Assembly (NCBI GenBank): GCA_002269645.1
Contig: NIVC01001638.1
Span: 192,219 to 256,218, forward strand
Length of the DNA stretch: 64,000 nt
Direction: 5' to 3'
Source of the DNA: Macrostomum lignano
Taxonomy: Eukaryota
In this document: piece by piece, positions 6,595 through 28,784 of the stretch
Layout of the letters: the number at the start of each line of letters is the position of its first letter
Numbering within the stretch: the stretch's first letter is position 1
The notes under the pieces: generated by a model
The model's database searches: none
What the model saw: only the letters and a program-made list of their open reading frames with translations
What the model was told of the DNA's origin: nothing
Program-made: the position numbers and the translations under genes

Positions 6595-6629
6595 TTTTTA
6601 TGTAAAAAAACTTTTTCTTTTTAAACTTG

Positions 6630-6785
6630 TGTATTTAAGACGCGTGTGTCTTTTTTCGGGATGTGTATGTGTGTGTCTCTTTGCGGGATGTGTGTGTCTT
6701 TTTTCGGGTTGTGTGTGTCTTTTTTTCGGGTTGTGTGTGTCTTTTTTTTTCTACTAGTCCTACATCCGACTAGTCCTACACCCTC
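6630..6785. repeat. Intergenic simple repeats (TTTTTCGGG-TGTGTGTC units; CTAGTCCTACA x2)
   Basis: Read directly between the ATPase and the next ORF. Confidence 0.7.
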
Positions 6786-6815
6786 ACACCTCTTTTACCG
6801 TCAGGGTGCACCAAA

Positions 6816-7196
6816 TTAGTCAAATTTAAAACCGCCTCCTTTCTTATATTCAGCTCTCATCTTTGCGTAGATGGCTGGATCGACACTATCTGCACTCGGT
6901 GCAAGGGGTTGAATATCTGGTATTGATTTCCGGGTTTCATTAACCGTATCCTTTATCTTTTTGGCTGCTGTGGCTACACTGCCAGCCGCTTCGGCAACGT
7001 TCTTGATGTTCTCTTTGTTCTCTCCAATGACCTTAAAAATCTTAGCCCCCTGAGCGATCAAATCGGCAAGGCCATTCCCAGAGCGTTCTTTTCTTGGATA
7101 GTGGCCTGCAGGGAAAAGTCCAGATCCGCGTTTAATGAGATTAAGTTCCTCTTTGTCATAGTATTTGTCAATGTCTTTTTCGAAAATAATTGGCAT
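6816..7196 (-). CDS. Small basic core/pVI-like virion protein with GxG protease-type sites
   Basis: KRGSGL, RSGNGLADLIAQGAKIFKVIG (amphipathic), terminal KKGGGFKFD; intact 126 aa. Confidence 0.55.
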   Translation of the reverse strand: MPIIFEKDIDKYYDKEELNLIKRGSGLFPAGHYPRKERSGNGLADLIAQGAKIFKVIGENKENIKNVAEAAGSVATAAKKIKDTVNETRKSIPDIQPLAPSADSVDPAIYAKMRAEYKKGGGFKFD

Positions 7197-7212
7197 CTTT
7201 TTAAATAGAAAT

Positions 7213-8424: not shown

Positions 8425-8454
8425 TTCTTATTTTATTTTATTTTTAGTTAAAAA

Positions 8455-9741: not shown

Positions 9742-9760
9742 ATATTTTTTAGGACAAAAA

Positions 9761-10624
9761 ATGGAAGCTATAGCCGAAAGACTAAATAACATTGTTTCAC
9801 ACTCTAAGGAGAGCATTCCTATTACAATAACTGGGCGAATTAATGACTCAAACGGGATGTTTGTTGAAAAATTAGAGCAGGCGATTCGCCTGGATCCAGG
9901 TGCTAATTACCATGTCTATCTTAACGACTTCACTGGTTGGTCAAACGTTCCCAATGTGATGGCAGCAAATAATAAGTTTTATTACAAATGGAAAGATGCA
10001 GCAGCAGACCCTGTGGTATTCCATGTGAGCACGCAAAGTGTGGATACCTACAATAACTTTCTAGAAAATGTCTTTACTAAGAGAGGCCATTTTGAGACAC
10101 CTGATGCGAGTAAGCCAGAGAAGAAACTTTTCCCTGTCAAACTAACCTATGATCTCACTGTAATGAGAGTGGTCATGCAAGTCCACAAAGATGCGGAGGT
10201 TGAGTTTAAAGATGACACTTGGTATAGGGAACTGGGATTCGAGAAGAAAGTTTATAAGGCAGAATCCGCGGCGCGGACCGCCACTCAAGCATCGGGGACT
10301 GTTAAAATGGTCCGGGAAAGTGCAAGCGGTTTGTTCTTAGCACCCAATATTGCAGACATTGTAAAGGGTTTGAATATTCTAATCAGAAGCAATCTCAGTC
10401 TTGATTGGGTATTTAAGGGAAAGCGAACGAATATTTTGTACAACATCTCCAACTCTGTTGCTGGAGGACAGATGGTGGTAGAGAAACCAAATCCAGTGAA
10501 AAGAGTTGTATTGAGTAATAAGGAGATTCACGAGATTGTGCTACAGTTTGAGACTGAAGATGGGGTGGGTGTTGATTTCAACGGTGAAGAGTTTGTATTG
10601 ACGTTGATCATTGAGAGAATGTAA
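9761..10624 (+). CDS. Minor capsid protein (penton, single jelly-roll)
   Basis: 287 aa; SNVPNV...NNKFYY, NILIRSNL, G.RTNILY, and C-terminal EIVLQFETEDGVGVDFNGEEFVLTL typical of Polinton mCP. Confidence 0.82.
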   Translation: MEAIAERLNNIVSHSKESIPITITGRINDSNGMFVEKLEQAIRLDPGANYHVYLNDFTGWSNVPNVMAANNKFYYKWKDAAADPVVFHVSTQSVDTYNNFLENVFTKRGHFETPDASKPEKKLFPVKLTYDLTVMRVVMQVHKDAEVEFKDDTWYRELGFEKKVYKAESAARTATQASGTVKMVRESASGLFLAPNIADIVKGLNILIRSNLSLDWVFKGKRTNILYNISNSVAGGQMVVEKPNPVKRVVLSNKEIHEIVLQFETEDGVGVDFNGEEFVLTLIIERM

Positions 10625-10628
10625 GAAA

Positions 10629-10868
10629 TCACAATTGCTTAATGATTTCTGCAAAGTTATAGTAGCTGTCGTAATCTTTTACGTAGGTTACTCCGTACTT
10701 ATGAAACCAGTGTCTTTGAAGAGCTAGATTAATATTAGGGACATTGATATCAACGCAGGGCCAATATTTTCTCATGTACTCGCTGTATTCCTTCTTGCAT
10801 TGGTACTTACTCTTGTAATTAGGCTCGTGCGCTTTGTAATAAGAACCTGGAGAGACAACTGGAAACAT
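10629..10868 (-). CDS. Small aromatic-rich orphan ORF at the edge of Polinton 1
   Basis: 79 aa, AAAAATG start like the other viral genes, convergent and tightly packed against the mCP stop. Confidence 0.5.
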   Translation of the reverse strand: MFPVVSPGSYYKAHEPNYKSKYQCKKEYSEYMRKYWPCVDINVPNINLALQRHWFHKYGVTYVKDYDSYYNFAEIIKQL

Positions 10869-10984
10869 TTTTAGATAAAAATTAGATTTTTTTTCAAAGG
10901 GTAAGGACCCTGCGCTGATGATTTAAAGTTTTAGGGATCTGGTTTCGCGTTGCAAATTGAATGTGGGGAGAAGAATGCAGATTG

Positions 10985-11280
10985 TTTTCTGATTGTTTCT
11001 GGGTGGATGTCAGTGGATTATGTCAGTGTCAGTGAACATAACAGGTGTTAGTGGACATCTGTTATGCACTGATTCTGTCAGGGATAATATGGATGGATTT
11101 AATAAGATTATGTTCGAAGTTTTCGGAGCAAGTGCGACCCCTCCACTTTTTCATGATTCTGTCGGGGATAATATGGATGGATTTAATGGGATTATGGAGG
11201 ACGTTTTGTGAGCGAGTGCGACCCCCCTTTTTTTCTGATTCTGTCAGGGATAATATGAATGGATTTAGGTGGATTATGGA
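10985..11280. repeat. Degenerate direct repeats (TTCTGTCAGGGATAATATGGATGGATTT x3)
   Basis: Near-copies at ~11073, 11157 and 11239. Confidence 0.7.
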
Positions 11281-11329
11281 GGAAGTGAAAAATTTTGTCC
11301 CAGAAGCCCCCTCATGCCTTCTACTGGTG

Positions 11330-12385
11330 ACTGATCACCTCCCGAATCAACTCTTCAATCAGACTGCCGCGAGAAACTTTCTTGGATCCGACCTACGACA
11401 CTCAGCGAAGCCTTGCGAGCACTGAAGAGGATGGACTAGCCAAAGACCTGGCTCATCCTTCGAACGAGCCCCCGGTCAGAATGTTGGACGGGGAGGGACA
11501 AGCCTCAAAGGAGCCCAACAACAGCGCCCTTTCGAAGTTGGAAAAAGTCGTTGAGCAACAATCTGTAATGATGCAGCAGCAGCAGCATCTACTCAACACG
11601 TTGGCACAGCAGGCCACAGCCGAACACTACCCGAACACTACCCGGAAGAGTATGGCCCCGGAGCCGCGGTAGCTGACTCGTCCGAGTCGTCAGTAATCGA
11701 AGAAACGGTCGATGGAGGTTTCGTGAACGCCTCCTTTGTAAATACAGTCCATGCGCGTGACGCCGATCCATTTATTACAGGACGAGTGGCTCGACGAGAG
11801 GTCGCTTTTCTGCTAGACAGCGGAAGCAGAAGAAACTTCCTCGGAGCGTCCACTTGGGCCGCCATTAGGCGTCGTCCACCACGTTGTATAGTTGCACCTG
11901 CTTACCCTAACCGAGTCGCTATGTACGACGGGACCGAGTTAAGTCTCGCCGCCAAGGTTATCCTATTAGTTGAATTCTGGGACTATGTCGCATAAACCGA
12001 ATTCTTCGTCGCCAAAGGAGACTGTGAAAATCTTTTAGGAATTGATTTCATGCGGAGTCATTGCCAAGGACTAGACTTCCAGCAAGGAATGCTCACATTC
12101 CGACAAGGCACCCGACTTCCCGTACGCTATTCAAGGAGAGAACTGAAGGCCTGCCGAGTGTACGTCGCTGAAAAATGCACTCTGCCGCCTCAATGTTCCT
12201 GCCTCGTCGCCATTAAACTAGCCGAAGGTCATCAGCAGAACTACGGTTCACCGATGATTATCGAACCACTCAAATCAGGACTGCGAGCGAAGCATCACCA
12301 GTTAGACGCAGCCCCGGTCCTGCATACGATGACAGAAGGTCGAGGAGTGATGGAAGTACTTAACCCATCAGATACAGAGGTCCAT
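11330..12385 (+). mobile_element. Ty3/Gypsy gag-end/protease fragment, truncated
   Basis: Retropepsin motif VAFLLDSGSRRNFL ... FFVAKGDCENLLGIDF (one TAA), then the post-protease spacer (LPPQCSCLV...EVLNPSD). Ends abruptly at the left inverted repeat. Confidence 0.75.
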
Positions 12386-12740
12386 CCAATGTGAGAATCG
12401 ATTGGTCTTTTAAAACTTTGCTTGTCCTTTATAGTCTATGGCTCATAGACTAGGCTGAACGCAGCTAGGCCCTTCGTATTCAGCGTAGGCAGGATTCTCA
12501 CTTTGGATGGCTTTATTCTCAGTTAGGCTGACAAAACCAATATTAGTGTAGTAGGCCCTAATAAAACACAGGTAGATACAAGTATAATGCAGACTTACTT
12601 TCAATACATGTGTGTATAAAGCGTAAAGAACATATCAGATTAATGTATAAAGCAGGTTTAAAAAGTCTACTTTCGATACATAGCAGTTTAATGTATAAAG
12701 CAGGTTTACAAAGTCTACTTTCTATACATATCAGATTAAT
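12382..12740 (+). repeat. Left inverted repeat of element 2 (contains 48-bp subrepeats)
   Basis: Reverse complement of 27020-27378 with only a handful of mismatches. AATGTATAAAGCAGG recurs at 12642, 12690 and 12738. Confidence 0.92.
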
Positions 12741-12938
12741 GTATAAAGCAGGCAAACACACAGGTGCAATTTCAACAGACGCATAATTAATGTCTCACCA
12801 ACTAAAGAGTAAATATTGGTGCGATTGTGTAACCAGCAGGCGCACAGCGGTTTAGGGAAACCCCAAAAGGGAGGTTCACGGCCTAATGACCCGATATACT
12901 TTCAACACGATTAAATTGAATGGCGACGCGGGGGCCGG

Positions 12939-13031
12939 AAAAGTCTATAGCCCGCAGGAATCGATCCTGGGTCACCCTGTTTTAAACCACCAGGGTTACC
13001 CCCTAGGCCATTAACCTCCCGGGGACTATAG
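12939..13031 (-). ncRNA. Candidate Pol III tRNA-like/VA-like small RNA (~90 nt)
   Basis: Minus strand: box A-like TGGCCTAGGGG, box B-like GGATCGATTCC, internal hairpin ACCCTG/CAGGGT, 9-bp terminal stem CTATAGTCC/GGGCTATAG, followed by TTTT. Confidence 0.5.
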
Positions 13032-13373
13032 TCTCATTATTGTCAAAAATAGATGGGCAAAAGGGAGGTTTTTACCGCCCGAGCCCTCTCACATGTTCAA
13101 TCGGGTTGAAAGTATTTCAAGTCATTAGGTTGTAAGGTCCATTTGTTTAGGACCGGCCCACCTATATTTCGGGTGGGCAGACTCGAGCCCGGGGCCAGCC
13201 CATTACAGTTTTCGGACCGGCCCCCTCTGGCAATTTCCTCCCTAGGGGCGAGCTATCAGAATTGGTGTTTTAACCCTGTGCATGCGCACATGAGAACCCA
13301 GTTAGCGCCCATTCTAACCTACCCAGTGTACAGTGTCAGGTTCCCCAAACCGCGTACAAAGAGAAATAGCTTA

Positions 13374-13940
13374 TCAGTCAATCTCCATACGCTCCCTCAG
13401 GGCTGTCTCGTACGCGGCCTCTTCCTCCACGCTCTCGAAGCAGTAGTCGGATGACTGCCAATGTGAAAATTATAACATTCTATATAGACAAAATATATGA
13501 AGTACAGATTATACGAAATGTATATATACTGTAATATCTTACCAAATCTAAATCGTCCTCCAGCCGCCACAGACGTAGAGACGCTGTATAGCGCACCAGC
13601 GAAAGGTGCTCCTCCCAGTTGGAGGGCCAGATAGCTGCAGCAGGCTCATCCCAAGCAGTCGGGCGCGCTCCCGGGCCAGCCAGGTACGCCTCCGAGTCGG
13701 GGGCATGCGAATTGCGCCCCATTAGCCAATCCTGGTGTAACGTCTCCGCCTCCAACACCTCCCGTAGGCAGGCCCCCCTCGAAACCAAAGTATCGAGAAC
13801 CTGATTAAATGCTCTGACAAAGGTGTCTTGGGAGGGCAGGCCGCCAGGGTGGCGAGACCTCAGCCAGTCGATATCCCCGCGGAAAAACGAGGCAACGATG
13901 CGTGGAAAGTGTGGTGGGCGTGTCCTCGCGGCTAAGCTAC
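13374..13940 (-). CDS. Last two exons of a spliced gene of unknown function in element 2
   Basis: Open frame ...FPRIVASFFRGDIDWLRSRHPGG...LRLWRLEDDLDL, GTAAG donor (13542), 88-nt intron, CAG acceptor (13455), phase-0 exon SSDYCFESVEEEAAYETALRERMEID*. 5' end not found. Confidence 0.62.
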
Positions 13941-14051
13941 TGGTTTTCTATTTGCTACTAAGGATTTTACTAGTGGATTATTATCTGCTGTACTGATTTG
14001 AGATTTGGTAGAATCGCTGCCACCAGGCTTCCTGTTCCCTAGTCCTATTAT

Positions 14052-14467
14052 TGTAGAGACAAAGGATTGACTCAGGAAAACCGAATTGTTTAACAAAAGT
14101 TTTATACTTCAAAAGAAAACAAAATGAAAAATAGCATGCAATGGTTGGTGCAAAATGTCAGGCATCGACTACCTGTAGGTGTACTGCTTCGGCATCAACT
14201 ACCTCGACAGTTTTACTTAAATTTTTCCCAATATTCCCTGTCTCTTACCTTCCTAATTTCTGAGATCTGCCGCCAGCCAGCGAAAATAAAACTAACTAAC
14301 AAGTCTGCTTTCCCAAGCCCCAAACTGTTCTATACTTCTAGAGAATCCCGAAAACTAGCGATTTTCCCCCACTCTAATTACTTTCCCAAACCTAAACTAC
14401 TGACAGTAGGCAAAAAGCATATCTGCTTCGCTACTAACTCCCGTTCCTAAAATAATGCCCTACTACA
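14052..14467 (-). repeat. 3' LTR of nested Gypsy element (416 bp)
   Basis: TGTAG...CTACA termini; polypurine tract AGGGGGGAGG immediately precedes TG on the minus strand (plus 14468-14477). Confidence 0.7.
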
Positions 14468-15038
14468 CCTCCCCCCTACTTTTAAAAGTTTGCAATCCCC
14501 ATTGCATACTTTCCTTCTTATTAGTTCGTGTATATTTGATAAATGTTATTATAATGGCGCGTGCAAGATGGCGTATTGAGCTGGATATAATTGATAAAAT
14601 TGTACTAATAATAGGTACCATTACAGTTGTGAACAAAAGAAAATATGTATGGCTATATAAGGAATAATGTCACGTTAGCGCTGGAGAGATTTAGGCACAG
14701 ATCATAGCTAATAACAGAATTGATAAAAAAATTGGTGATGACACACAGGTAATGCACGTATGAATTGGCAACAGTATAGAAAATAATTTTTATCAGGCAC
14801 AATTAATAGGCATAATTGCACTTTCTAAACGATAAGTGTAGCTAGTTAACATCATAAATGTAAAATGTAGATATTTATTAACGCAGAATAATAATAGGCC
14901 TAATTGGACTGTCCTGTAGAATAACTAGATAAACTATTAATGTATGCGTATTTATTTGTTAAGCATGCATAAAGAAAAGCATACCGGCTCAAATCCAAAA
15001 TGTAATTGTTTATGCTAATCTCAGCGTAACTACTTGGT

Positions 15039-15896
15039 TCAGTCATTACGTTCATCCTCTAGCCTCCTGCTTCTGGGGGGTACCAATAGGTACATCAGCC
15101 CATTAATGGGGATATTCGTGGCCTTGAACTGGTACCGGATGTCATCTAACATCTCAAACATGGCCCGCTCTCGCCAGGGCCCTCCGGCGCGCCGCTCGGC
15201 CTCTTGCAGTACGTAGGTAGTGGCCACCTCGTAACTAGCCGTTGCTTCTTCTTCGGATGCCATCCCTAAGAACTCCTGGCAGGCCGTCGGTAGTTGATGG
15301 TTCCACTGCCCAGTCCTGCCGCTGGATAGAATGGCCTTCTTTAAGGCTTTCGTGCTGGCCTTGAAAAGCTGCTTAAAGGCCTCCTCGTTCCGCTTCGGGG
15401 GCTCGGATTCTCGTGGCGCCGCAATCGGCCATTTTACTTGACCAAAGGGGTTCGGCAGCAGCTGGAATTTTGGCATCGGCGGTTCTGTTGCAGCTGCCAC
15501 TGGCGCGCCTGAGCCAGCCGACCCTTCTTCGTGTTCTTCCTCCTGCGGCTTCGTCTCCTTTTCTTCATTAGACTGCTGTTCCGTCTCATCTTCTTCATCT
15601 TCTACCTTTCGTTCTACATGTTGGACCAAGTCCTCCATAAACTGCTCTATCTCCCTTCTCAGCTCCTCTTCTCGCGTCGCCGTTCCTAATGCCTCGAAAT
15701 CGATGTCGATTTGTAACTCTCTGTGGACTTCTCCCTCCTCCTCCTGCTGCCGGTCCAATTTCTGCCTTTTATACGTTTCTCCACATTCTGCCAACTGCAC
15801 TGCCCTAATTCGCGGGGGCTCGTTCTCTTCTCGACTAGTTCTGCGCTGGCCGTAGATTCTCTTCCTAGGGTACACGCGCAATGGTGCGTCGGCCAT
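15039..15896 (-). CDS. Extra ORF downstream of Gypsy pol, unknown function (acidic/coiled-coil, basic N-terminus)
   Basis: Intact 285-aa ATG ORF between pol and PPT. No signal peptide or TM segment, so not env-like. Confidence 0.6.
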   Translation of the reverse strand: MADAPLRVYPRKRIYGQRRTSREENEPPRIRAVQLAECGETYKRQKLDRQQEEEGEVHRELQIDIDFEALGTATREEELRREIEQFMEDLVQHVERKVEDEEDETEQQSNEEKETKPQEEEHEEGSAGSGAPVAAATEPPMPKFQLLPNPFGQVKWPIAAPRESEPPKRNEEAFKQLFKASTKALKKAILSSGRTGQWNHQLPTACQEFLGMASEEEATASYEVATTYVLQEAERRAGGPWRERAMFEMLDDIRYQFKATNIPINGLMYLLVPPRSRRLEDERND

Positions 15897-16098
15897 AGTT
15901 ATTCAGATTTGAGCTGCAAGAGGTTGAATGGATTAAACAACGCCGCTATCCTCTGTACATAACTCTTCTGGTTCGGCCTGACAGTTAATCTATCCGGAGC
16001 ATGACGCTTTCTGGCTGGCCTAGCTTCTAAATTAATCCCTAGATTATTGTTATTATTTAATTGTACTGGCATAACTCCTTGTACACCTACTAAATTAT

Positions 16099-19000
16099 TT
16101 AGATTATTATTTTGATGCTGCACTTGTTGATTTGGCACTGACTGCACATTATTTGATGTTGCACTGGCATTAACTGCTCATTATTTTGATGTTGCACTGG
16201 CATAAATTGCACTGCGTCCTCGTACTCGTCGTCGCTTTCTGAGTCACTGTACACATTCGGCTGAATATTGGCTAGCTGTTCCCTATTGCACTGCTTCTTT
16301 TGTTCCTTTGGCTTAGTACGAGCTTCTTCCTCCTGATAATCTGCTTGCGGTACTTTCATTAAATTGTCTCTATGCATGATAAGTTCTTCCTTCCTAGCCT
16401 TCTTGTTTTTGGTGACTGGTCTAATCTTAAAGACTACTTCTGATAATTGTTCTACAATTTCGTAAACTGCCCTTTGCTTTCTGTGAAATTTGTTAGCCTC
16501 TGTGTTAGCAATTACTGGATTATTGATAAATACTAAGCTTCCTACAGGCAATGTTTCCGGCTTAGGCTTGTTAGAGTACTCCTGCTCACGGTTTTGCTGC
16601 ACTAATTTTAATCTCTTTCTTGCTAGTTCTTGGCCTTCCTGCAGATTCTGCTGATGTTCCTGGACATAAGATGGCAGGTCCTGAAACTGCTTTGGCTCGT
16701 TCAGCTCATTGTCACAGGGCATTCTGGCCTCTCGTCCAAAGATTAAATAGTGCGGACTAAATCCTGTGGCAGTGTGCGTGCTGGTTCTCAGAGCTGTTAT
16801 GCAACCTGGCAACAGAACGTCCCAGTTGGAATGCTCCTTCTCCAGTAAACAGGTGAGAATTGATTTAATCTGCTTATTAAGGTTTTCTACTAAGCCATTG
16901 CTCTGCGGATGATAACTAGTTGTTCGAGTGTGTCTAATGCCATAGAGGTCTAAAAATTTCTTAAAGGCCCTACCAGTGAACTGTGTTCCCTGGTCTGTGT
17001 GAATCCACTGTGGAATCCCAAAATCAGCGAAAACTCGTTCTTGTAGAATTTTGATAACTGTTTTAGCCTTCTGATTCCTAATTGCGAATGCGAATGGAAA
17101 TTTGCTAGTGCTGTCTATGACTGAAAGTACATATTTGTTGCCTGATTTGCTGGTTTGGCCAATAGGTCCTATTAGATCTATGTGCAATCTACCGAACGGT
17201 TCGACTACAGGATAGTTCTGAATTGGTGCCTTAATTCTTCGTCTAGTTTTGCTTTCTAGGCATGATTTACATTTGGCTACGTAGCGCTCAACTGCTGTTG
17301 CTAATCCTGGCCTCCAAAATCGAATTTTAATCCTCTGATAAGTTTTATCTCGACCTAGGTGTCCCGCTAACGGTGAATCATGGAATTGGTGAAAGATTTC
17401 ACTATCCAGAGACTTGGGCAACACTACCTTTGGATCAGTCTGCCCCATAGATAAGTCTACTTTGAGTACACCGTCCTCAATTCTGAGCAACTCATAGTAA
17501 CCTAAGAGGTTCCTACAGTCGTGGGTTAACTCTAGTCGTTCTTGAAATGTCGGTTTAGGCGAGTCATTCTCAATTAAATTTCTAACAAAGCCTACCGCCG
17601 GATCGGCTAGCTGTGCTGCGATCAATTGGTCACGGCGAACTGGGCTACGGAGATAGTCACTGAGCAGGGCATTGCATGCAGGCGGATTTCCGGTTTTAGG
17701 CTCCTGTCCCTGTCTATTGTCTAGCCTACTGCTACTAAAGATCGGAGTATTGTGTCGGTTCGTGACAGTGTCTTGTGACGAACAGCATGACGGAACTCCA
17801 CTGCTCGAGCTACAGGTTTCAGCGAACGCGGAATTGCCTGAGCTGACAGTAAAAGCTGATGCTGGGTCTGTATTCACTGTTGCCCTACAGCTTAGCGACC
17901 TGGCATGTGGGGACATCTCTTCCGGTTGAGGATCAGGGATCCTGGATAGGGCGTCAGCATTCACATGTTTAGGGCCACTTCTATGTTCTATCTCAAAATC
18001 AAATTCGGAAAGTCTTTCGATCCAACGACCTAAAATGCCTGTCTGTTCGGTTTGGCGAAGCAACCAGGTTAGGGCATTGTGATCAGTGCGCACCTTAAAA
18101 TGTTTTCCTACGAGGTAAAATCTAAAATACTTCAGCGAGTCAACAATCGCTAGAAGCTCCTTCCTCGTAATCGGATATCTAGTTTCTGACTGCCTCATCT
18201 TCCGACTATAATAAGCGATCGGCCTTTCAATGCCGTCGTTCTGTACTTGATTCAAGACCGCCCCAATTCTGACATCTGATGCATCAGTGTCTAACACAAA
18301 ATAAACTTGGGGGTCTGTATTGAACTCTGGGTAAGCAAGCACTTCTTCGGAACACATCCGTTCCTTCAACAATTCGAAGCATTCATCATGAATCCTGGTC
18401 CATTTGTCCTGGATACATTTGATGTTCTTCTTGGTTAACTCACAGAGTGGTACTGCTACCTCGGCAAAATCTCTAACGAATTTTCTATAGTAATTACAGA
18501 GTCCGAGAAAACTTCGAAGCTCTGTTACAGATTTAGGTTTCGGCCAGTTCCTAATTGCTTCTAATTTTGACGCATCTCTCTTAATTCCTGCTTTGCCTAT
18601 GACGTGTCCTAAATATTGTAGCTCTGATTTGAAAAGGTGACATTTCTTAGCCTTTAGTTTCATGTTAGCTTGTATTAGTCTCTTGAGCACTTCTTTCAGG
18701 TGTTCTAAATGCGATTCAAAGTCTGCACTATAAACTATTACATCGTCTAAGTAAGCTATAGCGAACTTCTGTGCAATGTCCTTAAGAACTAAGTTCATGC
18801 ACCTTTGAAAAGTTCCTGGAGCTCCTTGCAATCCCATTGGCAATACTTCGTACTCAAACGAGCCTCGATGTAAAGTTGGAAAGCTAGTCTTGCACTTATC
18901 TTCTTCCCTAAGAGCTATCTGATAATATCCCGAAAATAGATCTAACGTAGAAAATTGACTGGCTCCATGGAGACATGAAAATTTTTCATTGATATTAGTT

Positions 19001-19389
19001 ATTGGATACGGAAAGTACTCCGCTTTATTGTTTAGTGCTCGATAGTCGTTGACTAATCTCAGCGAACCATCTTTCTTAGGTACTATGACTAATGGAGTCG
19101 AGTACTGCGAGTAACTAGGCCTAATGATGCCTCTAGCCAACATGAGATCTAACTGCTCATCTACCTCCTTGATCCAATGAGGTGGAATTTTCCTAGCTGG
19201 TATCTGAACTGGGTTGTTGTCCTTCAAGATAATCTCATGAGTGACTAAATGCGTTCTGCCTAAGTCTAACTCGTGCTGCGAGAAAGCTGCTGAATGTTCC
19301 TTGACGACCTCGATCACCTTCTGTCTCTGTTCCTGAGTCAGTTCAGTTCCTATGTTAATCTCACTAATCCACTTAGCAACGGCAAGCAA
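16099..19389 (-). CDS. pol: Gypsy pol (RT, RNase H, integrase), lacking protease
   Basis: PLVIVPKKDGSLRLVNDYRALN, LDLFSGYYQI, MGLQGAP, AYLDDV, LDTDAS..IGAVL, TDHNAL, HDSPLAGHLG..C..C, LHIDLIGP, HTDQGTQF, GLVEN. Confidence 0.95.
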   Translation of the reverse strand: MLAVAKWISEINIGTELTQEQRQKVIEVVKEHSAAFSQHELDLGRTHLVTHEIILKDNNPVQIPARKIPPHWIKEVDEQLDLMLARGIIRPSYSQYSTPLVIVPKKDGSLRLVNDYRALNNKAEYFPYPITNINEKFSCLHGASQFSTLDLFSGYYQIALREEDKCKTSFPTLHRGSFEYEVLPMGLQGAPGTFQRCMNLVLKDIAQKFAIAYLDDVIVYSADFESHLEHLKEVLKRLIQANMKLKAKKCHLFKSELQYLGHVIGKAGIKRDASKLEAIRNWPKPKSVTELRSFLGLCNYYRKFVRDFAEVAVPLCELTKKNIKCIQDKWTRIHDECFELLKERMCSEEVLAYPEFNTDPQVYFVLDTDASDVRIGAVLNQVQNDGIERPIAYYSRKMRQSETRYPITRKELLAIVDSLKYFRFYLVGKHFKVRTDHNALTWLLRQTEQTGILGRWIERLSEFDFEIEHRSGPKHVNADALSRIPDPQPEEMSPHARSLSCRATVNTDPASAFTVSSGNSAFAETCSSSSGVPSCCSSQDTVTNRHNTPIFSSSRLDNRQGQEPKTGNPPACNALLSDYLRSPVRRDQLIAAQLADPAVGFVRNLIENDSPKPTFQERLELTHDCRNLLGYYELLRIEDGVLKVDLSMGQTDPKVVLPKSLDSEIFHQFHDSPLAGHLGRDKTYQRIKIRFWRPGLATAVERYVAKCKSCLESKTRRRIKAPIQNYPVVEPFGRLHIDLIGPIGQTSKSGNKYVLSVIDSTSKFPFAFAIRNQKAKTVIKILQERVFADFGIPQWIHTDQGTQFTGRAFKKFLDLYGIRHTRTTSYHPQSNGLVENLNKQIKSILTCLLEKEHSNWDVLLPGCITALRTSTHTATGFSPHYLIFGREARMPCDNELNEPKQFQDLPSYVQEHQQNLQEGQELARKRLKLVQQNREQEYSNKPKPETLPVGSLVFINNPVIANTEANKFHRKQRAVYEIVEQLSEVVFKIRPVTKNKKARKEELIMHRDNLMKVPQADYQEEEARTKPKEQKKQCNREQLANIQPNVYSDSESDDEYEDAVQFMPVQHQNNEQLMPVQHQIMCSQCQINKCSIKIII

Positions 19390-19866
19390 GAGGATTTGTC
19401 CTGAACAAGGTCACAGCCTCAACTCTAGCACAGTCATAACTCATAAGCCTTGAGCTAGTTGGTTGGTAGGCACACCAACCCCTTTTTTATGGTAGCGGGG
19501 GGCAGCCCTGAAGCGCATTAGCTAAGTTAGGAAGTGTTCCCGCTTCTACCGAGACCTCTTTCCTACTGTTCGTTATCCCTTTCCCCTTCATCGATCCAGT
19601 CTTCTTGTGCGGTCCCGGCCTTCTCCGGCTTTCGTCTCCAGGCGGGGTCCAGGTCAACTCCTCATCAGTCTCCCCCGCGGGCCGGTTCCAACCAGTTCCA
19701 GTTTTGCTGTCGGTCCGGGCCGCGTTCGCACTGTAATGAAAGGGTGAGCTCCGGGCGTGTCCTCATCTAACCTCTCTGCTTTCAGTTGCTTGCCCTCTCT
19801 ACTGTTGCTATTTTCTGCCTGATTTTATCCTAGAGCTCTCTTGAATTCGTTTCAGATTTCTAAGTC

Positions 19867-20400
19867 TTATAGAAAGCGCTCGCGAGCCATGGCAATCTCC
19901 CCAGGCACGTCCTCGTCCTCATCGTCGAAGAGAAGGAGCGTAGCGGCTGATGATATTGAGGCCCGGCGGGAGGCAGTCGAAGCAGAGGCGGCAGCAGCGG
20001 AAACGGGCGCTGCAGAGACGGGCGCAGCAGAGACAGAGGCGGCAGCAGCGGAGCCAGAGACAGGCGCGGCAGAGGCAGAGACAGGACCGGCTGTGGTCAG
20101 CTCCTCAACAGAGACCTCAAAGAGGGTGGCTGAGGCGGCAGTCAAATCGGAGGCAGTAGCAGCAGGGGCGCCGTTCACAACCCCTCCAATAGCCAGCAGC
20201 GGGAGGTCGAAAACTTCAGACTCGGTGTCACGATCATAGGCCATAGCCCAAGCTAAATATTGATCAACCTCCCAATTATCAGTTCCGTTGTTTTCAGTGC
20301 CTAGGGGGACTATGTGTTCGGGGATATCACCGTCGAGGCTAGTTAACTCTTCAGTCGGGCGATTTTTATCCCAGAGGTTGGATAGAGCTCGGCGGGACAT
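19867..20400 (-). CDS. Acidic, Ala/Ser-rich hypothetical protein of element 2
   Basis: 177-aa ATG ORF with TATA-like TATATAAT ~70 nt upstream; same orientation as the neighbouring PC4-like ORF. Confidence 0.5.
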   Translation of the reverse strand: MSRRALSNLWDKNRPTEELTSLDGDIPEHIVPLGTENNGTDNWEVDQYLAWAMAYDRDTESEVFDLPLLAIGGVVNGAPAATASDLTAASATLFEVSVEELTTAGPVSASAAPVSGSAAAASVSAAPVSAAPVSAAAASASTASRRASISSAATLLLFDDEDEDVPGEIAMARERFL

Positions 20401-20516
20401 GTTGGAATCAACAGAGAGTAAAGTATCAGAGCAAGGATGGGGTTTGGCTCTCTGGAGAGAGAGGAAACACTAATTATATAGTAGGTCCAAGTGAGGTGGT
20501 GTGAGCCAATAGGAAA

Positions 20517-21062
20517 CTACCAGTGCCGACCCTCGTCATACAGATTTTCCCAGGGCGGGGATTGGTAGGGTTTGAGACCCACAACCTGAAGAACGTCCTG
20601 CAGATTTTCCTCCTCAGTCCTGGCTACCGGAGGGGTCTCTGTCTTGGCTCGCTTGGCAGGCGGTGGGGCCTCAGGTGCCGGCTTAAAGAGCTTGTCCAAA
20701 CGGGAGGCAAACATCCGGCGCCACAGTTCAGGCGTGAATTCGATCGTGTAGCGCCAATTAAACTTTGGGTCCACGTTGAGCCAATCGCGCAGCAAACGAA
20801 TCCTTCCTTGCGAAGCCTCGACAGCCTTGAAATTGCCCAACACGACCCGCTTGTACACGTGAAGGCGGGCAGCAGCCTCCAGGTCAGGGCGTGCAGACTC
20901 GAGCTTCTTCCACTCTGGTTCGGTCAAGTAGATTGCAGGGAAGCCGTCCTTCCACACTCCAGCCTCGTTGGTGCAGAGACGCCGAATTTCAATCAAGTTG
21001 TGCTCAGTTTCAAATGTGGGCTTCCGCGCCACAAAGTTTTCGTATAGAGAGTTAAAAGACAT
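20517..21062 (-). CDS. Putative tandem PC4-like ssDNA-binding protein
   Basis: Two PC4-like units: IEIRR...AIYLTEPEWKKL and IRLLRDW...TIEFTPELWRRM; basic PPAKRAK motif; TATA upstream. Confidence 0.5.
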   Translation of the reverse strand: MSFNSLYENFVARKPTFETEHNLIEIRRLCTNEAGVWKDGFPAIYLTEPEWKKLESARPDLEAAARLHVYKRVVLGNFKAVEASQGRIRLLRDWLNVDPKFNWRYTIEFTPELWRRMFASRLDKLFKPAPEAPPPAKRAKTETPPVARTEEENLQDVLQVVGLKPYQSPPWENLYDEGRHW

Positions 21063-21099
21063 GATTTAGCAGCAGCAGCAGAGAGCTCTCTGGCAGCCG

Positions 21100-21300
21100 T
21101 GCAGCGCCTTATATACCCCCGGATGGAGGGTGGGGTGGGTGGTGATTTTGGGGGTGATTTTTGATGATTTTGGTTGGTTTTTGGCGATTTGACCAATAAC
21201 CAGCAAGCTGGGCAGATTTTTTAGTATATATACAGACCCCCAGAACAGGGATAGAGAGATAATCCTTCTCTCTCCGCTCTCTAACACTCTCTGTTTGCAA
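21100..21300. promoter_or_regulatory. Putative bidirectional promoter
   Basis: TATATAAG on minus (plus 21108-21115) ahead of the ATG at 21062, and TATATATA on plus (21225-21232) ahead of the pPolB ATG at 21302. Confidence 0.5.
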
Positions 21301-21301
21301 A

Positions 21302-24300
21302 ATGTCAAAGCGCAGCGCAGCACCAACTGCTTTCCTGGCTGATAAGAGGCAGCGTCTTTATGGTAAGTTTTTAATTAATTTCTGGCCAGTTGTTTATCAG
21401 TCTAGACTAGAGTTACTAGGGTGGGGTGCTGCGGCAGGAGGTGAGCTGCTGCGACAGCTGCAGGGGTTTAGCGCTGTCTAGACAAGTTTCAGCACGGTGA
21501 GCTGCGCGTGTAAACAAAGACTGGGGCTGCAGATAGGGTGCGTGTACGTAGCTGCCCAGACAAGCTGCAGCTGAGGTGCTGATAAGAAATTGCTGCAAAA
21601 ACAGATAATCGTTGGGTGCGGTGACAGAGAGTTGCTGGGGAGGACTAGACATCATTTAGCAGCAACAGCTGCAGGATCCGTGGGAATTGGAGGGGTGCAG
21701 CAGAGTAAACAACAAAGACTGGCGCTGCTGCGCTGGCTACACGGGTCTAGACTAGAGTCACTAGGCAGGGGGGGGGGTACGTTGCTGATAAGAAATTGGC
21801 AGAGGCTGTAACAGATAATCGTTGGGGTAAAATTGCAGACAAGTTTCAGCAGGGCGGTGGCAGAGAGTTGCTGGGTCTGATAATCGGTGTGCGGGGACAG
21901 CGTGAACTCTGATAAGAAATTGGTGCAGATTTCTGGCGCTGCCCAGACAGGCTGCAGCTGGGGTACAGATAAGAAATTGGCAGGGGCTGTAACAGAGAGT
22001 TGCTGGGGCGGGCTAGACACGTTTCAGCAGCAACAGCTGCAGGGTCTGTGGGCAGCAGAGTAAACAAAGACTCTTGCAGAATAGAGTTGGTGAATTGCTG
22101 CTTGCTGCGACATAGGGCTGATAGGAACTTGCTAGGGCGGGGGAATGACAGATTCTTCTGGTTTGTTATCTCCTTGTGTTTTTTTCAGACGCGTTTGTCC
22201 CGCCTGTACAGCCAGAATCTGTTACCGGACCGGGTGAGTTATCTAGCCCCCATTCCCCAGACAGACCCGGGCTGACTCACACTCCCCTTCATTCCCTGCA
22301 GGTTTTACGGCCCGGCTAGATAATCAGCGCAAGCTGCCCAAGTTTAGGGCAAAGGGTGTTGAGTATGTGGTGCGTATTAGTAACACCGAAGATTTACGCT
22401 AGACATTCGCTAGTATGCTCGAAGTTTTCAAGCAGGATTTGGCGGGGGAAGACTTTATGGCCGCGAAATTCGAGAGCGACAACATGCTCAAAGCCGCCCA
22501 TACTCCCCCCAGTGCGTGCAGCCCGCATGACAGCCGAATTATTATTCAAGCACATTGACAAGATTGTGCAGTCGGAGGCAACTGTCTTGACGGGCAACTT
22601 TTCTATCCGACTGCTAAAGGCCTGGGTGCCTCGAGGTGGCTGCTCCCTCGAGAACAAGCATCTGGAGGACCGCCATGTCTTCTCCAAGCACTATGTCTGC
22701 ATCAACAACACTGACAAGAGGTGCCTGCTGCGAGCGCTTGTTGTCGCCTGCGCCTACCTGCAATTTGTGGCCAAGACAATCACCGAGCAACTGTGGCGCA
22801 CGATCAAGGCCAATTCACTCAAGCAGACTAAGCTGGTGGCTCAGCTGCAAATCAAAGCCGGTCTCTACACGGTAAGTTGGGCACTGATTTTCCTGATAAG
22901 AATTACTAAAAGAACCATTTTTCTGCTATTTTCATGGATTACTAAAAGAATTTTTACATAGTATCATGGAATACTAAAAGAACCATACTCTGATAAGAAT
23001 TTTTACGATAAGAATTACTAAAAGAACCATTTTCTGGTAGGAATTTTTACATAGTATCAGGGAATACTAAAATAAATATTTTACCCCCACACAGACTCTT
23101 CAAACCGTCTCGCAGGCCGGTCCTTTCGGGGTGGATGTACTACCCGAGGCGATCCGTGCCCTGAACCGGCTGCATCCTGGCCACAACTTTGGTGTACGAG
23201 TGTACCGGGCAGAGGAGGCCAACAGGTGCATCTTCAACCTGCCTGGCATCGAGATTCTGCACCTCCACCTGATTGAGCAGCACTTCAATGTGGTTACCAA
23301 GCTGCCAGCGTTTTTCGGCAGCCACCACTACTGCTCCAAGTGCGAGATGGCCTATGACTGCACCAACGCTGAGCACAAGTGTGCTGACGCCTGGAGTACA
23401 TGCAAGACGCCGGGCTCCAACTGCAAGGTCAACCGCGCATATGTGAGATGCCATGATTGCGGGCTAAATTGTTATAATGCTCAGTGTCTAGAGAATCACA
23501 AGCGCAAGAATAAGGCGGGTAGATCTCGCTGTGATTCAGTCCACGTTTGCGGCACGTGTGGCTATCTAGAAGAACTGAAAGTAGGCCAGGCCCCCGAGCA
23601 TCAGTGCGGTCACTCCAAGTATCCAGTCTGCAAGCAGTACGATGAAACAGCCACCTACGAGTGCTTTGTCACCCCGCCCAAAGCCAAAGAGTCTAGCGCC
23701 CCGTACGTTTACTACGATTTCGAGACGTACGTTGACTCTGGCAAGCAGCACCGGGTACACTTGGTTACGGCAGCTACCTCCTGCGAGGCGTGTCCCAAAC
23801 TCTTCCCCAGGCCCCGCTGCAGCGCGTGCGGGGGTTGCACCGCTCAGCCAATTGCATTGCGGGACGCGATTTGGCGCGCGATTTTACGAGCTGTGTCTCC
23901 CACAATGACTGTGCTTGCGGGATGCGAGAGTTTTTATCAGTCGGGCCTCACTCTATCGATGCATTTTACTGCTGGCTGACTAGCGTGTTCAAGCAGGGGG
24001 CAATTGCTATTGCGCACAATGGCTCTGCGTATGACGCATTCCTCCTGCTCGGAGCCCTACTCAATGGACTGGCCAAGAAAAAGCCCCAGGTAATCTTCCA
24101 GAACAGCCGCCTGATGTACATGAAGAGTGACAAGATCACGTTCAAGGACAGCCTCAACTTTATCCCTATTGGTCTGGCGCAATTCCCAAAGGCACTTGGT
24201 TTGAGCACCCAACTGACCAAAGGAGATTTCCCGCACGTGTTGAATCAGCCGCAAAACTGGGGCTACGTAGGACCCTACTGCTCGATTGATATGTACGGAG

Positions 24301-26476
24301 GGAAAAAGAATAAGCAACACGACTCCATCGCTGACTGGCTGGCCCAGCAGGAGGGCCGAGTGTTTAATTTCAACAAGGAGTACCTGGACTATTGCCTGCA
24401 GGACACGCTAATATTGCGGGAAGGCTGTCTAAAGTACGGCCGCCTAATTAAGGACATTTGCGGACTGGACGCATTTGTCCAATCCAACACCATTGCGGGC
24501 TTGGCCATGGCAGTATTCACCACCAAGTTTATGGTGCCCAACACTCTTGGGGTGATTTCTCGCCGGTCAGATGTGCAGTCGCACAAGGCGCGGTGCTGGC
24601 TTGCACATTTGAATGCAACCGAGTTTGGCGGCCGGTTGCGGACAGCCGACTTTGGCGGCGAGGCTTTCGCCATAGGCCGAAAGGTGTATGGCTTCGACCC
24701 AGAGACTAGGACGGTGCTCCAGTTTCATGGCTGCTTCCACCATGGCTGTCCCAAGTGCTTTTTCAACGGCGACGTGCTGCACCCGCTCAAGAACCAGCCA
24801 ATGCGGGCAATTTATGAGGAGACTGAGCGCTTCACCCGGCTGCTCTCTACAGCCTACAATGTACGTGTTCTGTGGGAGCACGACTATCAGGGCGGGGGAG
24901 CGCCAGTCCAGCAGCCTATTCGTCTGGAGGAAGCCCTGTTTGGCGGCCGCACCGAGGCCTTTGTTCCGCACGCCGAGGCCACTGAGACTGTGGAGCTGCG
25001 CTATAGGGATGTGGTAAGTTTTTTCAAAATTTCTCACACACACGCACACACACACAGTTGACTTGCGTTTGAGTTTAGCCTACTTATCCTCTAGGTGTCG
25101 CTCTACCCGACTGTCAACAAGTTTGACAAGTACCCTGTCGGGCACCCGGTTCACCACCCCGAGCCTCATCTACTAGATGAGCAGCAGCTGGCTCGGTATT
25201 TTGGCATCGCCGAGGTCTCAATTCTGCCGCCAACCAATCTTCACATCCCGCTACTGCCCGCCAAGATTAGCAAGAAGCTGGTTTTTGGCCTCTGCCGCGT
25301 CTGCATGGAGACACAGTGCAGCAGCGAGTGTACACACACTGACGCTGAGAGAATGCTCCGCGGCACGTGGTCGACCCCAGAGCTCCACAAAGCCCTGCAG
25401 TTGGGTTACAAGCTGCAGTCAGTTCATGCCCTGGCGTATTGGACCGAGACTCGGTCCGGGCTGTTTGCAGATTATGTAAACACCTTTTTGAAGCTCAAAG
25501 CCGAGTCTAGCGGTTCGCCGGGGATGACTGAGGGCGCCAAGGCTGCCTACATGGCCAGCTTTTTCGAGCGCGAAGGTGTCCGGCTTGACAAGGTGGAAGA
25601 GAACCCTGGTCTGCGCTTTGTGGCCAAGATTTTTCTAAACTCGTAAGTTGGGGAGACCGTGTTTTTCTACTTACAGTAGCCAGATATACTAACTGCTAAA
25701 ATTTATTTTTCCCTGCAGGCTCTGGGGAAAATTCTGCCAGCGCGACGACTTGACCTCCACAGAGATTGTGGACAGCTACGAGGCGTGGCTCCAGCGTCTG
25801 ACAGACCCCTCCATCAAGGTCAAGTCGTGCGAGCCTGTTGGGGAGAGCTTCATGATGCTCGAGTATAAGCCCCGATTTGGCGGTGCCAGCGAGCGAGCAT
25901 TTAAGTACGCCAATGTACCAATTGGCGTTTTCACCACCTCCCATGCCCCGCTGCGACTCTACGAGGCTCTGGAGGGGCTAGGACCAGAGTCATTTACGCC
26001 GATACCGATTCGTAAGTAATTTTTTCACTGTCTCTGTGTCTCTTTCTCCCCCAACACTTTTTTATCCTCCTCCTCCTCCCAGGGTCGTATACCGGTGCTC
26101 TCCGGGCGAGTACGAGCCTCCGGGCGGTTCGAGTTTGGGGCAGTGGACTGACGAGGTACCTGCCGGCTGCCGTATGGTACAGTTCACCACTGGGGGCCCC
26201 AAGCTCTACCGCTATGTGGTGGAGAAGCCCGACGGGTCGGTGTACTCGGTACTCAAGTGCAAGGGCATCCGAGTCACACCCGAGATTTCCGAGCGCGAGG
26301 ACGAGCTGCAGGAAATTCTGCGCCACGGCTGCTCTGTAAGCCTGCCCCAGGTCCAGTTCAGGCGCGATATGGCTAGCTGTACAATCAGGACCCTGGAGAT
26401 GGACAAGACTTTCCAGCGAGTAATGACTAAGAGAGTGTATGGGGCCGCCAGCCGTCCGTATGGCTTTCGGGAGTGA
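21302..26476 (+). pseudogene. Seven-exon protein-primed DNA polymerase B (~1276 aa restored; 3 single-base frameshifts, 1 TAG)
   Basis: Exons 21302-21362, 22189-22233, 22302-22871, 23095-25013, 25095-25642, 25719-26011, 26083-26476, all GT-AG and phase-compatible. Motifs: NNTDKRCLLRAL, YYDFET, AHNGSAYD, YCLQD, FGGRT, DV|VSLYP, KIFLNS|LWGK, YADTDS|VVY, GGPKLY, KCKG. Confidence 0.9.
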
Positions 26477-27019
26477 GTGATAACGATCTGTCTTAGGGGA
26501 GCGGTTTTCGTGAGTGATAAGGATCGGTCTTTGTACGTCTCCCAGCCTGGGATTCCCCTATGTGCACACTTGGGATCCCTTCAAGTGTTAAAACTCCCAT
26601 TTGACACCTATTCCCCCGGGGCGGTTTGTAGCCCGTTGGTCCACCTCTTGGAGTAGAACTCCTGCAAAACGGACATAAACTGCTGCGCCGATTAGCGTCC
26701 CGATAGCGCAATCGAAATACGTTTCCGCTCCCGAGCCCTCTCACGGGTTCAATCGGGCTGAAAGATGTTGACGCGTTCAAAAGCGTCGTGATAATAATAT
26801 ATTGTGGGTTAGGGCGGCTAAAAACTCCCTTTTGTTTTTTGTTTAATGCACCTGTGGGCTAGACAATTGCAGCAATATTTACACCTGCAGCACCTACGTT
26901 TGTATAGCTTTATTAATCTGATATGTTTCAAAAGTGAATATGCTTTATACATATGAGTCTGTATTTTACAACTATATATTTACGCCTGCTGATATTTGCA
27001 CTCGCGCATGCATACCATT

Positions 27020-27378
27020 ATTAATCCGATATGTATCGAAAGTACACTTTGTAAACCTGCTTTATACATTAAACTGCTATGTATCGAAAGTAGACTTTGT
27101 AAACCTGCTTTATACATTAATCTGATATGTTCTTTACGCTTTATACACACATGTATTGAAAGTAAGTCTGCATTATACTTGTATCTACCTGTGTTTTATT
27201 AGCGCCTACTACACTAATATTGGTTTTGTCAGCCTAACTGAGAATAAAGCCATCCAAAGTGAGAATCCTGCCTACGCTGAATACGAAGGGCCTAGCTGCG
27301 TTCAGCCTAGTCTATGAGCCATAGACTATAAAGGACAAGCAAAGTTTTAAAAGACCAATCGATTCTCACATTGGATGG
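27020..27378 (-). repeat. Right inverted repeat of element 2
   Basis: Reverse complement of 12382-12740. Confidence 0.92.
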
Positions 27379-27516
27379 CTTTTTATCACTTTGCTTGTCC
27401 TTTATTGTCTTTGGCCCATAGACTAAGGCTGCACGCAGCCAGGCCCTTCGCAGTCAGCGTAGACAGGATTCTCACTTTGGATGGCTTTATTCTCAGTTAG
27501 GCTGACAAAACCAATA
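27218..27516. repeat. ~300-bp imperfect palindrome overlapping the right inverted repeat
   Basis: Arms 27218-27345 and 27388-27516 (TATTGGTTTTGTCAGCC...GGCTGACAAAACCAATA), 42-nt loop. Confidence 0.85.
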
Positions 27517-27719
27517 CGTACCCGCTTTGTATTTTGTCTGCTTTACCGTCTGTCAATATATCGATAATATGCACCTACATTGTGTGTTTTTTTGCTGCTC
27601 ATATACCTATTATGCACCATTATTCACACCTACCAATATGTTTTATCTACTTTTTTATGTAAATATACTCAATTTCGCCTACTATAAGTAGTTTTCACTA
27701 GCCTAATATCATTGACTAC

Positions 27720-27995
27720 ATATCGGTGTACACATACATATCGGGAGAGTGTACTGGGGAGAGTGTACTGGGAAGAGTGTACTGGGTAGAGTGTACTGGG
27801 GAGAGTGTACTGGGAAGAGTGTACTGGGTAGAGTGTACTGGGGAGAGTGTTCACTCGGGGTGCCTGCGGCATACATATCGGGGTACATATCGGGAGAGTG
27901 TGCATACATATCAGGAGGGTCGCCTGCGGCATGGGCGCCTGCGGCATACATATCGGGGTACATATCGGGAGAGTGCGCATACATGTCGGGAGGGT
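27720..27995. repeat. Minisatellites (15-bp GGGAGAGTGTACTGG-type units; CCTGCGGCATACATATCGGG units)
   Basis: Direct tandem copies visible. Confidence 0.85.
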
Positions 27996-28784
27996 CGCCT
28001 GCGGCTGGACGGCGCTTGGCGATACGATACGATACGCGTATCGATCACCTAGTGATCGGGGCGCCAGCCAATGAGAGGCGAGGAGGGTTGACACCCACCT
28101 CACCTCCAAAATCAACGGAAACGGGGTTGTATAGTAGTGAGGTAGACCCAAAGTAGTGAGAGACCATATTTAAAATATTTCACTATGTACCCAAGGCCGG
28201 GCAATTTGAGGCCGCGGAGGCAATAGAGCTTGTGCATGTGGGAGAAATAATTTCTCTACACGGAGCCAGCGTGCCTATGAGGCCGCCTGCTGGGGGAGAG
28301 ATTTTCTCTCCCGAAGTCAGCGTGCTCGGGGGTCGCGTGCATGGGAGAGAGAAGTAGCTATTATTATTACTCCATAATTATGAAATCAGTGAGGTTTGAA
28401 TACTAGATTTCATGTTTTCTAGTAGAAGTTAATCTCAGTTTTTCAGGGCATTTTTTTCTCGAATACTGTGTTGGGATAGCTATTTCAGCCATAAGAGCTT
28501 TGTACGTCAATCGATTTTAGTATATGTTGATCTAAGGGGGATTTGGTTGTCCCAGAAGCCCCATCATGACAACTACTATCCCGTTTAGATCAGTAGTTAA
28601 AATTATGACGATGAGGTAGTTGGTTTTTGGTATTAGGGCATGATGTTTAAATAGATTTTAGTACTCGTAGATAATGATTTTTTGTTGCACCAGAAAAGGG
28701 GTAGTGGTTTTTTTCCCAAAACTTTGCGGAGGGAATTTGCACCAGAACTCCCCTCATGACAACTTAGTGTCATAGTGGGTGTGT

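Follow-up and report, generated by a model that had tools for sequence, protein, structure and literature searches.

A capsid-less polymerase element of Macrostomum lignano as the likely half of a two-segment Polinton

Polintons (Mavericks) are defined by the presence of a polymerase and an integrase in one element. In the available parts of two sources (PMC8097293, PMC8502044), intact vertebrate Mavericks are described as intronless and 12.7-24.6 kb long, and Alpha-class adintoviruses as carrying a pfam03175 polymerase of the pPolB family. The Polinton end motifs given in the accessible text of the former (PMC8097293) are (AGT)2, (AG)3 or (AC)3A, and ACTACT is not among them. Polinton search pipelines, as outlined in the portion of 10.1101/2023.08.22.554363 at hand, need several core genes within ~20 kb, and split forms would therefore be missed. 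Here, we describe an element located in a stretch of 64,000 nucleotides from M. lignano (GenBank assembly GCA_002269645.1, contig NIVC01001638.1, positions 192,219 to 256,218 of the forward strand), hereafter the window, to which all positions without a contig or locus name refer. It represents a 9.5-kb segment, A1, in a damaged state. A1 and a 10.5-kb segment with matching ends, B1, are likely the two parts of one Polinton. A second such pair is termed A2 and B2.

The closest described systems each share only some features with these segments. The Bidnaviridae (BmBDV) have two separately packed segments with inverted terminal repeats, a 53-nt common terminal sequence and a Polinton-derived pPolB; their DNA is single-stranded, the capsid is of parvovirus type, polymerase and major capsid protein (MCP) are encoded on one segment, and an integrase is lacking (PMC4061559, PMC4938981). 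A and B resemble them in comprising two segments with a common tip and a pPolB, here known from genes alone. They differ in that the segment lacking the polymerase encodes an integrase as well as a capsid of the double jelly roll type. The Acheta domesticus segmented densovirus is likewise presented as a bipartite genome in a normally monopartite lineage (PMC10267136, available part); unlike A and B, it is a single-stranded DNA parvovirus that does not integrate by an integrase of its own. Mobile replication modules of the Polisuviricotina are proposed, as a speculation, in 10.64898/2026.10.13.758929, where their pPolBs are described as always occurring with a DDE integrase and where a transpoviron is defined as a pPolB plus a DDE transposase; that such modules move autonomously is regarded there as speculative. 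Segment A is like these modules and transpovirons in being a replication module without capsid genes, and unlike transpovirons in that its pPolB is accompanied by neither a DDE transposase nor an integrase, while a matching polymerase-less morphogenetic element is present. The yeast killer and helper linear plasmids of 9 and 13 kb are described, in the part of PMC13348850 consulted, as cooperating double-stranded DNAs that are related to eukaryotic double-stranded DNA viruses, cytosolic and free of particles. This pair resembles A and B as two cooperating linear double-stranded DNA elements. The yeast plasmids are not known to integrate, and each of them carries a polymerase. A segmented Polinton was not found in the literature searched, outside of which lie Repbase, subscription journals and supplements that could hold a non-autonomous Polinton entry; the words 'segment', 'bipartite' and 'multipartite' are absent from the text of 10.64898/2026.06.19.733378.

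An earlier note on the window, made from the letters alone, had described a pPolB element bounded by inverted repeats and lacking structural genes, and had called for other copies and target-site duplications (TSDs). One pPolB exon used as a genome query gave 127 matches, of which ~56 loci were at least 85% identical (A1) and ~30 loci near 70% identity formed a second subfamily (A2). It should be noted that the genome searches give lower bounds, with 97 of 536 MCP candidates scored and the loci from an end-pattern search taken from its first 100 matches. Ten A1 loci were inspected over 11-20 kb each. All ten are 9.3-10.1 kb long, start with ACTACTA, are bounded by terminal inverted repeats (TIRs) and have unrelated flanks. 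The TIRs are ~900 bp long and 94-100% identical in eight copies and more diverged in two, and a perfect 6-bp TSD was present in all ten (judged by eye, with four boundaries shifted). None of the ten carries an integrase; a 6-bp duplication without an own integrase means that a helper is needed. Thus, of the proposal that the element is a distinct minimal class or a satellite, the capsid-less and integrase-less form holds as a repeated, separately integrating family, while the note misses the complementary element with the same ends, in view of which the element is better regarded as one of two segments than as a stand-alone replicon. The eight two-ended A2 copies start with ACTAC(G)TA and all have 6-bp duplications; six are 9.5-10.4 kb long and two with inserts measure 13.8 and 15.1 kb. 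Their left part is variable and mostly non-coding, and a homologue (42%) of the A1 gene ORF B was found in two A2 loci. In total, 120 A2-type ends were counted.

The A1 segment encodes a spliced pPolB, a PC4-like protein (ORF B) and one orphan protein (ORF A). The polymerase of the window is confirmed by PF03175 matches with E-values of 1e-15 and 3e-13, the match of the protein being above the cut-off, and it has the exo I-III and pol A-C motifs. In a Pfam scan its N-terminus gave no OTU match, and motifs containing Cys and His were seen there by eye only. Four GT-AG introns of pPolB were skipped in contigs of four presumed-RNA runs from three studies, and the five introns tested were all retained in genomic copies in each of the 59 cases (out of 65) that allowed both flanks to be located, so that the A1 pPolB is transcribed and spliced. 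The introns differ between A1 and A2. For ORF B, an Atlas score of 0.86 with PC4 in 10 of the 10 best family hits, a Pfam PC4 match with an E-value of 0.19, and human PC4 as the top fold match of the predicted model (E-value of 0.018) are each weak signals, but all of them agree on a PC4-like protein that likely binds single-stranded DNA. ORF A had no match in the Atlas, and its 5 matches among 1.84 billion representatives were all 82-99% identical, leaving it without an outside relative. In UniRef, ORF B and the polymerase both have their nearest homologues among proteins labelled Macrostomum lignano, and this flatworm is accordingly taken as the host.

The candidate partner segments were found by their ends and their capsid gene. 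A gapped AC-end pattern had 352 genome matches, compared to 11 for a control. Of the 14 loci inspected from this search, 11 hold segment B2 and 3 are without such genes. B2 carries on one strand an integrase with a chromodomain, an ORF resembling a minor capsid protein (mCP), a 433-aa capsid protein, a protease (PRO) and an ATPase, but no polymerase; its length is 7.6-11.0 kb, with a TSD in 7 of 10 two-ended copies. The integrase of B matches rve (E-value of 2.5e-8), the protease retains His-Asp-Gln-Cys, and the ATPase retains Walker A and B. The model of the B2 capsid protein (pLDDT 88, pTM 0.86) matches PBCV-1 Vp54 with an E-value of 2e-17 and is of the double jelly roll type, whereas the mCP is named by its position and its similarity to an ORF of a monopartite family only. 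A search with the B2 capsid protein led to a second group at 75-89% identity, which is B1. This segment has a length of 10.5 kb, starts with ACTACTA as A1 does, shows a TSD in all five two-ended copies and carries genes for an integrase, a double jelly roll capsid protein, adenain and an ATPase, but no pPolB; 59 B1-type ends were counted. The B genes are long, uninterrupted ORFs, and B1 was covered by long contigs in two of three presumed-RNA runs. B1 additionally carries an ORF with a Fic domain (L155:5027-5806, E-value of 5e-14), which was not seen in B2. A further ORF, present in both B segments (L132:2966-3514) and in the third monopartite Polinton group (L160, L163), looks TBP-like by eye, although a sequence search of the PDB gave 0 hits.

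In the stretches examined, the two gene sets exclude each other. Among 89 stretches, 27 match the A-type pPolB (one of them a distant fossil at 31%) and 0 of these 27 match MCP, ATPase or PRO, while 20 B elements match B genes and 0 of these 20 match the A-type pPolB. Both sets together occurred in 0 of 47 gene-bearing stretches and in none of the examined AC-ended elements. This answers the question, posed in the earlier note, of whether any copy carries MCP or an integrase: none of the examined A-type stretches does, both genes residing on the B elements. Among the loci found, only 3 contigs carry both gene types, and there they are 46-468 kb apart. Different AC-ended elements (B1, B2, A2-ended ones and palindromes) adjoin or nest in one another at C261:112484-132051, C382:258446-278560 and C251:125759-143219, hinting at insertion hot spots.

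The ends of the elements, ACTACTA or ACTACGTA, also pair A with B. Across 181 distinct ends, nt 1-5 and a run of T at nt 28-31 are nearly fixed, and nt 8-27 are strongly variable; in the window this 20-nt block lies at 28112-28131. The mean p-distance within A1 is 0.50 at nt 8-27 (12 copies) versus 0.014 in the polymerase exon (13 copies), i.e. the block is ~35-fold more diverse, and it is shuffled in short modules, with the four-gamete test failing for 123 of 190 and 62 of 91 site pairs. The two ends of the same copy were identical in 33 of 50 elements and differed at four or more sites in 7 of 50, compared to identity in 3 of 268 comparisons between copies. The variants of nt 8-27 form one pool for A1 and B1 and another for A2 and B2, where the A1-type class of ends includes those of non-coding satellites. 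The mean nearest-neighbour distance over nt 6-27 was 2.3-3.6 within A1/B1 and A2/B2 and 10.9-12.9 across them, and 8 of 27 B1 ends were identical to an A1-type end over 31 nt, with 0 common to the different pairs. From these patterns we infer that ends are copied to one another during strand-displacement replication and that molecules replicating together exchange them. In adenovirus, repair of the termini by way of a panhandle is known. The hypervariable tips may serve as a record of which molecules replicated together.

Both halves are also under purifying selection. By the Nei-Gojobori method, applied to one B1 copy and three A1 copies, B1 and B2 gave dS values of 1.1-3.0 or saturated ones, with dN/dS of 0.03-0.12 in the 5 of 10 genes with finite dS; for the pPolBs of A1 and A2, dS was 2.2-2.9 and dN/dS 0.10-0.14. 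Since each half kept its function over a long period apart, an old bipartite state fits better than recent decay. The synonymous sites are at or near saturation, and dating is therefore rough.

Non-coding elements use the same ends. A 30-mer taken from the A1 TIR has 211 exact matches in the genome, and all 20 TIR pairs inspected have 6-bp TSDs, one of them after allowing an extra ACT unit. Thirteen pairs bound non-coding giant palindromes of 7.5-9.4 kb (7 of 7 directly tested were palindromic), the others being 3 polymerase copies and one each of a polymerase/palindrome hybrid, a 3.2-kb deletion, a nested pair and a Gypsy-filled element. The arms of the satellites carry pieces of both A1 and B1 TIRs. 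That these elements group around 9 kb hints at a packaging size. The giant palindromes (L049-L060 and L062; e.g. C977:137745-146951) have A1 ends, and their arms are 96-100% alike across at least 25 contigs. At C558:43513-53313 (L061), A1 ends surround two tandem 4.25-kb Gypsy fragments, 9.9 kb in all, as if these were a stuffer.

Taken together, A and B hold what Polintons hold, namely pPolB, integrase, MCP, an mCP-like protein, PRO and ATPase in ~20 kb, which falls inside the length range of intact vertebrate Mavericks. Segment A has a pPolB of the same family, long TIRs, 6-bp TSDs and trinucleotide-repeat tips in common with Polintons, and judged by its genes it appears to work like a Polinton replication module. 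It lacks the integrase, MCP, ATPase, PRO and reported end motifs of an autonomous Polinton. In contrast to Polintons, the genes are distributed over two separately integrated elements, the tips read 5'-ACTACT, and nt 8-27 are hypervariable; unlike in intact vertebrate Mavericks, pPolB contains spliceosomal introns. The complementarity of genes and ends points to complementation in trans, with packaging and end exchange. Through protein-primed strand displacement, the pPolB and PC4-like protein of A would replicate whatever linear DNA has ACT-type ends; the retroviral-type integrase of B would insert each segment separately; and the capsid protein, adenain and ATPase of B would package molecules of ~10 kb singly. 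Displaced strands would anneal at their tips; in this way the ends of each copy would come to resemble one another, and A, B and non-coding satellite molecules that replicate together would have their nt 8-27 shuffled. It is possible, with chances we place slightly below even, that this represents an active segmented and integrating double jelly roll DNA virus of an animal, in which each segment is packaged on its own and likewise integrated on its own, a 20-nt tag at the tips, rapidly shuffled, separates two old coexisting partner systems, and segment-sized non-coding palindromes are parasitic as defective genomes. A natural two-segment Polinton would hold the replication and morphogenesis modules apart and yet under selection. 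It would offer a tangible way for modules to be swapped, a process called speculative in 10.64898/2026.10.13.758929, a possible intermediate toward bidnavirus-like genomes, and a testable case for the origin of multipartite double-stranded DNA virus genomes in a culturable host.

Several observations weigh against the two-segment interpretation. The data consist of assembled contigs, so that particles, free linear DNA and biochemical complementation are deduced rather than seen. Many assembled copies are frameshifted, the main exon being broken in 6 of 13 other copies; the pPolB of the window is itself frameshifted, so this copy is probably dead, and some frameshifts in the assembly may be sequencing errors. 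Three of ten B2 pairs lack a TSD, A2 and B2 have no full 31-mer in common (0 of 23), and inward of nt 31 it is with B2, not B1, that A1 has 18 nt in common. The coverage of B1 was patchy in one of the three presumed-RNA runs, and RNA-type coverage is no proof of transcription because the long ORFs of B offer no intron for such a test. Size is not strict either, since AC-ended elements of 0.46, 1.1 and 3.2 kb occur, and the counts leave out several AC-ended pairs of 14-40 kb (e.g. C126, C485, C583, C2285 and C271). These last pairs, together with the lower-bound nature of the searches, would also fit the view that A and B are both non-autonomous derivatives mobilised by an unseen, complete AC-ended Polinton that is unassembled, rare or exogenous, and non-autonomous derivatives are common among transposons. 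Yet both gene sets were never found in one gene-bearing stretch, each half varies little in size or content, passengers would not be expected to be under strong purifying selection as both halves of two old pairs are, and the pPolB introns differ between A1 and A2 while the B ORFs are long and uninterrupted. We therefore regard such a hidden Polinton as improbable.

Only a little more credit is due to one-way parasitism, which we consider unlikely, with A as a self-replicating satellite that borrows the integrase and capsid of B, and B being copied by the polymerase of a resident monopartite Polinton. At least three monopartite Polinton groups with a pPolB of their own do exist in the genome, and ACT and AGT tips both start with A. 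However, the monopartite ends are AG-type, the ends of B come from the pool of its own A partner and not from that of the other pair, and the synonymous divergence is similar, and saturated, for A1/A2 and B1/B2. Gypsy integrases are abundant in this genome, and A could in principle be an integrating linear plasmid that was inserted by an integrase of the host or of a retrotransposon, unrelated to it, B being coincidental; but A, like B, invariably has TSDs of 6 bp and fixed ACTAC ends, while the Gypsy insert described here has a 5-bp duplication, and A1 has its ends in common with B1, which makes this explanation very improbable. The least credible explanation, with next to no weight, came from the earlier note: that the structural module of one Polinton copy had gone in the deletion near 19390 that also took the 5' end of a nested Gypsy. 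This Gypsy is indeed truncated, at 19371, but there it abuts a 501-bp piece of another repeat, and the insert is flanked by a 5-bp duplication (GAAAG at each side). All ten uninterrupted copies join 13909 directly to 19872, with no such module in between, which refutes this explanation. We retain the two-segment Polinton as the likely one and describe its damaged A1 copy in the window below.

Features of the A1 copy in the window and of its immediate surroundings
Feature	Position	Strand	Remarks
Left TIR remnant	12382..12950	+	Outer part and terminus gone; starts at apex of the palindromic miniature inverted-repeat transposable element (MITE); half MITE at 12382-12544
ORF A, 3' part (orphan)	13400..13909	-	Short last intron predicted from sequence only
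Nested insertion, foreign to the element	13910..19871	-	GAAAG at both sides
Gypsy 3' long terminal repeat (LTR) in nested insertion	~13910-14470	-	
287-aa ORF in nested insertion, between LTR and pol		-	
Reverse transcriptase (RT)-RNaseH-integrase of nested Gypsy	16099-19370	-	
501-bp piece of another repeat, in nested insertion	19371-19871	-	
ORF A, 5' part, acidic, Ala/Ser-rich	19872..20400	-	Relatives only within its own family
ORF B, predicted PC4-like fold, 181 aa, likely single-stranded-DNA-binding	20520..21062	-	Three weak concordant signals
Putative divergent promoter region	21100..21235	.	TATATA at 21110 and 21225
pPolB	21302..26476	+	Four GT-AG introns skipped in RNA-type contigs; first intron predicted
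Right TIR	27020..28138	-	Ends ...TAGTAGT; hypervariable block at nt 8-27, counted from the tip
Palindromic MITE in TIR	27219..27516	.	Dispersed family
GAGGTA, probable right TSD	28139..28144	+	Deduced from the 6-bp TSDs of other copies; left copy gone with the left end

The nested Gypsy that had been proposed was borne out by the detection of its pol (RT-RNaseH-integrase) between the repeat arms. The insert in which it lies measures 5,962 bp, and ~9.5 kb remain once inserts are taken out, close to the predicted ~9.6 kb. MCP, ATPase and adenain were indeed absent between the ends, and the sole integrase match (26%) is attributed to the Gypsy pol. Of the four genes that had been listed, the spliced pPolB and the PC4-like ORF stand, whereas the ORF described as acidic and the second spliced gene together make up ORF A, of which each is one part, because all ten other copies are continuous across the insertion site; the genes thus number three. 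The central TATA region likewise holds, with TATATA at 20475, 21110 and 21225.

The 359-bp inverted repeat of the earlier note is real (12382-12740 and 27020-27378, 99% complementary), but it is the inner part of a longer TIR and does not mark the ends of the element, the true right terminus being located beyond 27378. The concern that the repeats might be an unrelated dispersed family applies to ~160 of the 359 bp: this outer part is one half of a palindromic MITE, intact on the right side, and the rest is TIR. The MITE is dispersed in the genome, with at least 98 matches (40 of 409 candidates scored), and its end 25-mer is missing from all ten other A1 copies; a reading of 27219-27516 as a hairpin terminus was therefore ruled out. 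On the left, the window copy is cut off at the apex of the MITE and adjoins an unrelated gag/protease piece of Gypsy type (11331-12381). This piece was considered as the inverted 5' half of the nested Gypsy and rejected, as it did not match three longer copies of that Gypsy family. A canonical AG-ended Polinton of a 15-kb family (window 1-11325; also L243) ends ~1 kb to the left of the element.

Two other contigs, C3314 and C3940, have the same right flank as the window copy and are versions of one insertion. The MITE is at the identical position in both TIRs of the window copy, and in C3314 it is present in the left TIR only. This distribution suggests copying between TIRs. A 15.9-kb inverted duplication at 99.9% identity in C3314:1-39264 (L001-L004) spans the left part of the element and may be an assembly artefact.

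The monopartite Polintons of this genome for which ends were found all have AG-type ends. A third capsid group, at 31-33% identity to B, consists of monopartite elements of ~19 kb, whose polymerase gave no tblastn match to the A type. The B capsid protein escapes the PF21738 profile. Of the 73 capsid matches to this profile, 17 loci were inspected in the search for a partner; 16 fell into two monopartite families with AG-type ends, one of 18 kb and one of 15 kb, and the remaining one was a decayed relative. A genome search with Pox_A32 gave 0 matches even though ATPases exist, and is uninformative. No pPolB relative was found in IMG/VR, where 101 matches to the end pattern lay mostly in mid-contig and were treated as chance, and a scan of metagenomes yielded one distant capsid contig (28%). 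Public contigs of 1.8-3.8 kb contain capsids at 78-80% identity. Elsewhere in the window, 43610-46350 and 52163-60405 contain coding-like repeats, Gly-rich and tandem-repeat ones, with duplications spaced 4.8 kb and 14 kb.

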